DNA of 64,000 nucleotides from Dictyostelium discoideum (lineage: Eukaryota). The notes under the pieces are model-generated. The model did not search any database and had not been told where the DNA came from. It was given only the letters and a program-made list of their open reading frames with translations. The stretch spans positions 5,184,001 through 5,248,000 of the forward strand of contig CM000153.2 of NCBI GenBank assembly GCA_000004695.1. The letters are read 5' to 3'. Shown here piece by piece: positions 15,680 to 17,320 of the stretch (its first letter is position 1; each line of letters opens with the position of its first letter). The translations under genes were made by a program, and so were the position numbers.

Positions 15680-16289
15680 CAAAAGGAGATATTTATCAAA
15701 AAAAAAAATAATCAAAAAAAAAAAAATTAATAAAAAAAAATTAAATTAAAAAAAAGCGATCACTTTAGATTTTATTTGAAATCTAACCAATTTTTTTATT
15801 TTATTTTTTTTTTAATTTTTTTTATTTTTTTTTAAAATTAAATAACAATTTTTTCAACTTTAAAATAAATAATGATTAAAAAATAAACATCTGCCATCTG
15901 AATAATTTAATCCAAAATAAAAATAAAAAAAAATTACAAAACTTTGAAAAAAAAAGTATTTTATTACATTTTTAATGTTTTATCACTAAAAATAACCAAA
16001 AATTTTTTTTTTTTTTTGTGTTCATTTAACAAATTAATTTAGGAATTCAATACAACATTATTGTTGTGTACTAACTAAAAAGATTAATTGTTTTGTATTA
16101 TTTTAATTTATCATCTTTAATATCTTAAATAAATTTAAACTATTATTACAACTATTATTATCATCTCTACCACCTTAGCTATTAGTATCTCTACTATTTT
16201 CTATTCAATACCACTACCAATACTATTTCCATCAATTGAATTTAAACTTGTTGAATTTGTTGATGCTGCTGATGTTTGTTTGTGTGTGT

Positions 16290-16815
16290 TTTAGAATGAG
16301 AATTTACGCGATAGGGGTGTAGTTTTGTTCTTTCGGTACACACCAATACAGAGACTATTCAAGGTCACCCTTGTTTGAACCACTGAAGTCATTGATGTCA
16401 ACACTAATTGAACCACTGTATTCATTGATATCACTACTAAATGAATCACTCTAGTCAATGATGTCAACACTAATTGAGCCACTGTATTCAGTGATATCAC
16501 CACTAATTGAATCGCTTAATTCACCAATGCTATTAATCGAATCAGTATAATTATTGTTGTCACTACCAATTGAATCACTGGATTTACCAATACTATTAGT
16601 TGAATCACTGAGGTCATTAGCGTCTCTACTTATCGAATCACCGGATTCAACAATAATATTAATTGAATGACTGAGGTCATTGGCGTCACTACTAATTGAA
16701 TCACTTGATTTACCAATACTATTAATTGAATCACCTGATTCACCAATACCGCTAATTGAACCACCAAATTCATTGATATCACCACTAATTGAATATTTCT
16801 AAGAGTTGTCACATA
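16290..16815 (-). pseudogene. degenerate S/D/I/G-rich tandem-repeat ORF (no start codon, internal stop); candidate pseudogene or repeat-protein exon
   Basis: The minus strand carries an open frame KYSISGDINEFGGSISGIGESGDSINSIGKSSDSISSDANDLSHSINIIVESGDSISRDANDLSDSTNSIGKSSDSIGSDNNNYTDSINSIGELSDSISGDITEYSGSISVDIID*, then SDSFSSDINEYSGSISVDINDFSGSNKGDLE*. These are built from ~63-nt (21-aa) repeats made of ~30-nt half-units. No in-frame ATG exists, which is why the ORF track missed it. Related SIGSG-type repeats occur in another frame nearby. The region is far less AT-rich than its surroundings. It is bounded by similar direct segments (CTATTTTCT(C)TATTCAATACCACTAC(C)AATA) at ~16195-16225 and ~17022-17055. 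Confidence 0.4.
16381..16800. repeat. ~63-nt (2 x ~30 nt) degenerate tandem repeats, ~6-7 copies
   Basis: Plus-strand units of the form CACTAATTGAATCACTGGATTTACCAATACTATTAATTGAATCAC... recur with 70-85% identity. This is the DNA underlying the S/D/I-rich pseudo-ORF. Confidence 0.7.
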
Positions 16816-17320
16816 TAAACATTTAGCGCTGTGTGAATGTACATAGTCTTCTCATGATTACATGATATTATGATACTATGGTTGAAAAGTTGGATTTGAT
16901 AAATGTAAATCGAATTGAAACTTGTTTATTTAAACTTGGTTGGATTTACAGCTGATAAATACACTTTTAAACCACTACTTCCACCACTACCACTACTATT
17001 ATTATTACTATTACTACTATTTTCTCTATTCAATACCACTACAAATATTACTAATATACTATATGGTGATGAAATCGATGTTTGAGGGGTTTACCTATTA
17101 ATAAAATAAAGAAAAATACCAAAATAAAATTTAATATTTTATAATTCTCTAAATCATTAAATTATTTATTTTCAATGTATAAAATAATAATAACAATAAT
17201 CTCTCAATCCTTTATATCCTTTTAGAATATATATAATAAAATAAAAATAAAAATAAATTCAAGGTGTTTAAATAAGTTAAAAAATATGATTTATTATACA
17301 TGCTATAATTAATATATGGT

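Follow-up and report, generated by a model that had tools for sequence, protein, structure and literature searches.

A likely pseudogene relic of a giant IPT/TIG gene between CHMP6 and mcfC in Dictyostelium discoideum AX4

The IPT/TIG proteins of Dictyostelium include the allorecognition proteins of the Tgr group (TgrB1/TgrC1), which are transmembrane proteins of about 900 aa. A giant IPT/TIG gene, with a tail built from a 10–11-residue repeat of the DSINSIG/DSISS type, lies beside the carrier gene mcfC in a sister lineage of D. discoideum and has a homologue in D. dimigraforme. In broad outline, the giant gene would be like them in being IPT/TIG-built and strongly variable between strains and species, and it departs from their familiar features in its size (at least 3481 aa), its long acidic Ser-rich tail and the absence, as judged by eye, of a C-terminal hydrophobic segment in the ORF of the sister lineage.

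Here we describe a comparatively G+C-rich island in the window (the whole stretch of D. discoideum DNA analysed, 64,000 nucleotides) that shares the tail repeat of this giant gene in frame, as well as its strand, its position relative to mcfC and the last repeat unit as end point, but that is without TIG domains, Pro/Thr linker, start codon and native C-terminus and has gained a premature stop. We interpret the island as a non-functional relic of the 3'-terminal, repeat-encoding tail of the giant gene, whose product would be of a secreted or surface type, and place the probability of this reading at roughly 0.8. Such a pseudogene relic is an ordinary kind of object, newly identified here. Like unitary pseudogenes and other deletion relics, the island is truncated, start-less and disabled by a stop, keeps coding composition and periodicity, and has an intact counterpart in a sister lineage; it differs from them in its flanking direct repeat of about 100 nt, in junction DNA unrelated to the parent locus and in its location at an inversion breakpoint. 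The hssA/2C/7E small proteins, in contrast, resemble the island only in Ser-rich composition, as their repeat differs and the island appears to originate from the giant gene.

The giant IPT/TIG gene in related lineages

In the D. cf. discoideum assembly GCA_054859235.1 (L007), the 3' end of the giant gene lies 530 bp upstream of mcfC, and the two genes share a strand. It was called as one gene of 3481 aa that runs off the fetched locus (L007 1–9470), such that its product is at least this long. A 1770-aa ORF carries 15 IPT/TIG matches (Pfam E 2.8e-122) and a second ORF a further 2 (E 2.5e-11), giving at least 17 in total, and the gene proceeds from these TIG domains through a Pro/Thr-rich linker to an 848-aa ORF of DSINSIGE/DSISS-type repeats. 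The D. dimigraforme homologue (L004 13758–21779), which is 56% identical, likewise combines TIG domains, PT-linker and an S/D/N-rich tail, and it also adjoins mcfC, but on the downstream side. Because this homologue shares the architecture, we take the giant gene to be old and real. Mismatches between the species across the TIG region (0.27, 0.21 and 0.35 at the first, second and third codon positions) follow the pattern of constrained coding sequence. A search with the 1770-aa TIG ORF returned, among the matches listed, only distant TIG proteins at 22–32% identity, a result that, with so poly-Asn-rich a query, is uninformative on an AX4 ortholog.

Composition, reading frame and homology of the AX4 island

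The window derives from D. discoideum AX4. Over 5.7 kb it shares 99.8% identity with another D. discoideum assembly, one that has an AX4-identical mcfC protein and in which the island is 100% identical. The upstream neighbour of the island is CHMP6/vps20, a Snf7 family gene identified by homology (17321–18252, minus strand), and its downstream neighbour is mcfC (13882–15603, minus strand, ATG at 15603; best match D. discoideum mcfC), which encodes a Ca-binding protein with EF-hand and mitochondrial carrier domains and serves as our synteny anchor. A tRNA scan found no tRNA in or near the island.

The whole AX4-specific block spans 16005–17066, as delimited by alignment to another assembly of the complex (L006), whose homology stops at 17066 and resumes at 16005. 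G+C content across this block is 0.297, versus 0.105 (15604–16004) and 0.157 (17067–17320) in the adjacent intergenic DNA, so that the low-AT island described in the first-pass annotation is indeed present (30% G+C between flanks of 10–16%). The repeat ORF itself reaches 0.338, and the island as a whole falls in the range of the neighbouring exons (0.27–0.37). Within the block, Tandem Repeats Finder (TRF) delineated a minus-strand tandem array (16375–16794) with a period of 63 nt at 16497–16734 (3.8 copies, 78%), of 66/33 nt at 16375–16513 and of 30 nt at 16568–16794. All of these periods are multiples of 3, the basic unit being 10–11 codons, and the array length of about 420 nt corresponds to about 6.7 × 63 nt, in agreement with the six to seven copies of a ~63-nt minus-strand repeat counted earlier.

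Translation of the minus strand yields a frame rich in S, D, I, G and N that reads 115 codons, TAG, 31 codons and a second TAG. The open frame is limited on its 5' side by a TAG at 16799–16801 (CTCTTAG followed by AAATATTCA). The first part (16454–16798; KYSISGDINEF...SISVDIID) is a homologue of the L007 tail by translation, BLASTP and nucleotide alignment, and it ends at a premature in-frame TAG (16451–16453). With the frame unchanged, the second part (SDSFSSDINEYSGSISVDINDFSGSNKGDLE; 16358–16450) matches the parent array in its final unit (…EYSGSISVDIYDFSDSNNGELE), and the terminal TAG (16355–16357), aligned to TAC in L007, is where homology to the parent stops on the 3' side, with unrelated sequence beyond. 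No ATG occurs in this repeat frame of the island. The reading made from the sequence at the outset, that of a start-less frame opening after CTCTTAG, interrupted by one in-frame stop and continuing in the same frame beyond it, therefore holds. Two further frames are likewise largely open, which we regard as a by-product of the repetition.

Comparison with the giant gene connects this frame to a coding past. The island ORF matches the L007 tail with a BLASTP E value of 3e-21, collinear with tail residues 604–793 (the last repeat units), and at the nucleotide level window positions 16760–16356 align to L007 8912–9304 with 73% identity over 409 columns. Frame is shared with the L007 ORF in 381 of 387 aligned columns (98%); the alignment opens with one compensating +1/-1 pair, and the other gaps measure 3, 3 and 12 nt by BLASTN, or 3, 3 and an adjacent 7+5 nt (= 12) by a second aligner. 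Opposite the internal TAG of AX4, the intact L007 gene has TTC (Phe), which is also found in the neighbouring AX4 repeat copy. The exon-like composition and the 30/33/63-nt periodicity of the island are thus inherited from a coding past. Mismatches between island and L007 by codon position (0.18/0.29/0.22) are without a third-position excess, although this could reflect a fast-evolving, low-complexity tail and not only pseudogene drift.

What remains is a small piece, about 146 of at least 3481 codons. Homology to the parent is confined to 16356–16794 and stops abruptly at 16356, beyond which ~350 bp of unrelated DNA takes the place, in AX4, of the final ~55 codons of the parent and of its 3' flank (L007 9304–9670). 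This DNA includes the G+C-richest unique segment of the island, which stands in place of those codons (16258–16354; 0.39 over 16258–16357). Collinearity returns in the promoter-proximal DNA of mcfC (15941–15605 versus L007 9670–10000, ~80%), and the distance to the mcfC ATG is similar in the two lineages, 530 bp from the L007 gene end and about 750 bp from the end of the island ORF. Searching with the L007 TIG ORFs by tblastn, we found no TIG sequence in the 64-kb window, and the island ORF contained neither an IPT/TIG domain (PF01833) nor any other Pfam family at E ≤ 0.01. Set against the ortholog group of the giant gene, the island thus has in-frame homology and the mcfC-relative position and strand, and it does not have TIG domains, an intact ORF, a start or a native C-terminus; for this reason we file it as a relic of the giant gene and not as a member gene. 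One option in the first-pass annotation was the last exon of an unannotated repeat protein, with no first exon in sight. This was correct insofar as the island is homologous to the terminal coding part of a giant IPT/TIG repeat protein, whose upstream exons went unfound because they are absent from the window, and probably incorrect as regards a live exon, since a premature stop is present.

Relic in place, captured fragment or live exon

Evaluating how the fragment came to its present site, we favour a relic that stayed in place over one captured from elsewhere, and assign the former roughly three quarters of the probability given to relic origin as a whole. This preference follows from the same position and orientation and the similar mcfC distance as in the intact L007 tail, and from the fragment being the 3'-most part of the array, as expected from a 5' deletion. 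A single clean deletion in place would be insufficient, because the homology stops at 16356, the last ~55 codons and the 3' flank have been replaced, and 16802–17066 has no match to the parent. From these sequence comparisons, the history of the relic appears to involve more than one event.

The flanks of the island supply the evidence for capture, in which a piece of the giant-gene tail from elsewhere in the genome, or from a lost copy, would have been inserted during double-strand-break repair or replication-based rearrangement with duplication of ~100 nt of flank, leaving a pseudogene all the same. The core lies between two copies of a direct repeat, the ~30-bp segments remarked on earlier (16197–16225 and 17022–17050), which agree at 26 of 29 positions, whereas the best match in all 100 dinucleotide-preserving shuffles was at most 23/29. 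Gapped alignment lengthens the repeat to ~97 nt, with 16954–17050 as the direct repeat of the left flank. The partners thus defined are a left flank, F-left (16128–16225, minus strand, with its core at 16197–16225), and a right flank, F-right (16950–17050, minus strand), of N/S/G-type low complexity. Consistent with capture, moreover, both junction segments (16005–16356 and 16802–17066) are unrelated to the L007 locus and the outgroup sites are empty. However, the matching place, orientation and mcfC distance and the 3'-most identity of the fragment speak for an origin in place, and a single F-like copy, the target sequence that such an insertion would have used, was not found in the empty sites of D. 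citrinum and D. dimigraforme. We therefore consider capture improbable and keep it as a minor alternative.

Further comparisons characterized the flanking sequences in their own right. As regards a transposable-element insertion, the flanking direct repeat of ~100 nt is much longer than target-site duplications generally are, and neither the window nor nine related loci yielded a further copy. Between the relic ORF and F-right lies a unique, non-AT-rich spacer (16802–16949, minus strand, G+C 0.29), and the unique segments 16258–16360 and 16800–16960 gave only low-complexity AAT/AGT matches in the window and the nine loci. We also evaluated the flank repeats as the C-terminus of the parent gene and rejected this, the local alignments of F-left and F-right being no better than those of shuffled sequences.

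Turning from relic to function, the possibility of a live coding exon arises from an automated gene model, P0141, in the AX4-like assembly GCA_054883475.1, in which a 346-aa 'Snf7' protein is composed of CHMP6 exons 1–3, 16950–17038 (VLNRENSSNSNNNSSGSGGSSGLKVYLSA, within F-right) and 16454–16798, such that the island would be a 3' exon of a CHMP6 isoform or of an unannotated gene. Canonical GT...AG sites, including a GTAAAT...TAG intron at 16799–16949, join the pieces in frame, and the model ends exactly at the TAG at 16451–16453. Against this, P0141 skips the last exon of CHMP6 itself (…LKEQKEQKEKERVPQMV), which is kept in D. citrinum, D. dimigraforme and other D. discoideum strains; in L006 the same pipeline produced a 619-aa fusion of CHMP6 with a downstream ORF that is unrelated to it; no other strain or species examined has the added part; and the proposed 151-nt intron has 29% G+C versus 10–16% in adjacent intergenic DNA. 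Dictyostelium introns are generally far more AT-rich than that. An island exon beside CHMP6 is absent in D. citrinum, D. dimigraforme and three other strains of the D. discoideum complex, and in those five CHMP6 encodes 213–220 aa with a different, conserved last exon. A codon-position signature of constraint is absent from the comparison of the island with L007, and a protein homologue was not recovered among 1.84 billion representatives. Given the skipped exon, the parallel fusion in L006, the absence of the added part elsewhere and the composition of the intron, we take P0141 to be probably an artefact and regard a live exon as very unlikely. The TAG at 16799–16801, which had been proposed as a splice acceptor from its sequence, is accordingly used as one by a single automated model, itself probably artefactual.

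Least probable is a non-coding element, be it a satellite-like array or a gene for a small RNA (e.g., an H/ACA snoRNA in the G+C-rich segment), with accidental open frames. In its favour, repetition holds several frames open, a weak Rfam match to H/ACA snR36 occurs on the plus strand at 16222–16349 (21.4 bits, E 0.2–0.7), and that strand folds there as two hairpins (z = -2.0). Against it, the repeat periods are all multiples of 3, in-frame homology ties the array to the 848-aa ORF of a real gene, the Rfam match scores far below the gathering threshold of 50 bits, 5 of 200 shuffles fold as well, and no other strain contains a counterpart of the G+C-rich segment. The Rfam scan of the island returned nothing above threshold, and the snR36 match (RF01439, clan CL00035) was treated as chance. 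For the same reasons of period and frame (98% of columns in the parent frame), the satellite option entertained earlier finds no support. Nor does the hssA/2C/7E option, for which a complete ORF with a start and family similarity was looked for by Pfam (E ≤ 0.01) and two large protein searches; the island yielded no Pfam hit, start codon or small-protein homologue. Those searches were of the island ORF against 5.8 billion proteins, with nothing at E ≤ 0.01, and exhaustively by HMMER against 1.84 billion representatives, with only spurious bacterial repeat-protein matches, and as neither returned the L007 giant protein both are weak evidence on Dictyostelium.

Returning to the relic in place, we propose that the AX4 lineage lost the 5' part of the coding sequence, some 10 kb at the least, while the ~146 codons of the last repeat units would have stayed behind as a remnant truncated at both ends, start-less and broken by the change from TTC to TAG. 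Judging from position and orientation, this fragment most likely remained in place through deletion and rearrangement in the CHMP6–mcfC interval, and events of this kind probably also produced, as a by-product, the two flanking stretches in which the ~100-nt direct repeat is found. Today the relic probably does nothing, save for possible read-through or mis-spliced CHMP6 transcripts.

The CHMP6–mcfC interval across the D. discoideum complex

To place the AX4 island among its relatives, we compared the same locus in seven other assemblies, reached via the mcfC protein cluster. Nucleotide identity of mcfC to AX4 ranges from complete (L002) through ~97% in L001, L005 and L006 (D. discoideum or cf. 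discoideum strains) and 92.5% in L007 ('cf. discoideum') to ~90% in D. citrinum (L003) and ~87% in D. dimigraforme (L004). Across almost every assembly compared, the interval upstream of mcfC holds different content. In D. citrinum and D. dimigraforme, CHMP6 is followed directly by mcfC, at ~370–450 bp versus ~1.3–1.5 kb in AX4, and locus alignment found no trace of the island in either interval. L006 keeps the AX4 flanks, to 17066 and from 16005 on, with an unrelated 3.4-kb insert carrying orphan ORFs between them, and a Pfam scan of the alternative inserts of L006, L008 and L005 found no family.

A larger change distinguishes L001 and L005, in which mcfC is joined to DNA of AX4 window positions 34–42.7 kb in opposite orientation, and downstream of CHMP6 there is other DNA before the tRNA-Leu that AX4 has at window positions 42859–42941. 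This arrangement corresponds to an inversion of ~25.6 kb with breakpoints in the island interval and at window positions ~42717–42850, and its junctions carry a 486-bp repeat (88% identity) whose copies are mutually inverted, as judged from the orientations of the loci in the contig. Literature searches on the new assemblies or on this inversion found nothing relevant. On the strength of these alignments, the CHMP6–mcfC interval is structurally unstable within the D. discoideum complex and is an inversion breakpoint as well.

These observations can be extended to a bolder and, in our judgement, doubtful proposal, that the interval is a recurrent rearrangement hot spot occupied, according to lineage, by the giant TIG gene or its relic, by an orphan gene unrelated to these, or by the junction of an inversion, that the giant TIG gene would be a presence/absence polymorphism bearing on cell–cell recognition or on reproductive isolation between cryptic species, and that the AX4 relic might reflect a recent loss in the laboratory lineage.

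For annotation, our findings mean that this block is best labelled a pseudogene fragment and that the 346-aa and 619-aa 'CHMP6' models of two new assemblies should be treated as fusions with unrelated downstream sequence. For the organism, the giant IPT/TIG gene that a sister lineage keeps intact is apparently missing from the AX4 reference, or at least from this locus, and this absence, together with the breakpoint and indel hot spot in which the relic lies, should be useful for studies of genome evolution and of the variable surface proteins of social amoebae.

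An inversion ending in the CHMP6-mcfC interval

Evaluating gene order around the relic, the repeat island between CHMP6 and mcfC, we found an inversion of ~25.6 kb relative to AX4 in two further assemblies of D. discoideum, GCA_054859355.1 and GCA_054859385.1 (loci L001, L005, L008 and L009). Its first breakpoint falls within the CHMP6-mcfC interval (window ~15835-17096), and its second (window ~42717-42850) adjoins a tRNA-Leu(UAA) gene at 42859-42941. The inversion junctions of both assemblies hold a 486-bp repeat (88% identity), the copies of which, as read from the orientations of the loci, are mutually inverted in the contig; the AX4 window lacks this repeat. 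Because the AX4 gene order is also that of the outgroups, the inversion represents the derived state.

The surroundings of the second breakpoint offered two further observations. A stretch resembling a tRNA 3' half (…GGTTCGATTCTTGATTAACTAGGCCCACC; minus strand, window ~42795-42840) adjoins both this breakpoint and the tRNA-Leu gene, and ARAGORN made no tRNA call for it. Neighboring the same gene and breakpoint, the 43.2-47.6 kb region is rearranged in the inverted strains, with ~73-90% identity.

The giant TIG gene and other occupants of the interval

The giant TIG gene, from whose tail the relic probably derives, lies immediately upstream of mcfC in D. cf. discoideum L007, opposite to its D. 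dimigraforme homologue (L004 13758-21779), which lies immediately downstream. Between these two loci, the gene has kept its adjacency to mcfC but switched sides. A different occupant is seen in D. cf. discoideum GCA_054859205.1, where a 3.4-kb insert unrelated to the relic (L006 6240-9616) sits at the site that the relic holds in AX4 and contains orphan ORFs in which Pfam identified no family. In AX4, the plus strand at window 16222-16349 gave a sub-threshold match to the Rfam H/ACA snoRNA model RF01439 (21.4 bits; threshold 50), folds into two hairpins (z = -2.0), and is followed just 3' of the match by an ACA, with no counterpart of this segment in other strains.

Gene models of mcfC and CHMP6

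For mcfC, the annotated protein has 472 aa and exon concatenation yields 469 aa, so that either the exon 1/2 junction lies differently or the gene has one more small exon; between exon 1 and the next carrier exon (window 14830-15045) no in-frame canonical GT-AG intron was found. The last CHMP6 intron (window ~17370-17490) is in frame, lacks stop codons and could be spliced from either of two donors, GTAAAC or GTAATT, which are separated by 9 nt, the latter being the choice in CHMP6 annotations of other strains; AX4 models of 216 aa and 219 aa were both absent from the protein collection. Automated annotation also extends CHMP6 into its neighbors, joining it to the orphan ORFs of the L006 insert as a 619-aa protein (P0137) and, in the AX4-like assembly L002 (7357-9158, window ~16451-18252), to the relic as a 346-aa model (P0141, KAM9941760.1). 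P0141 omits the conserved last exon of CHMP6; it is probably an annotation artefact and merits flagging.
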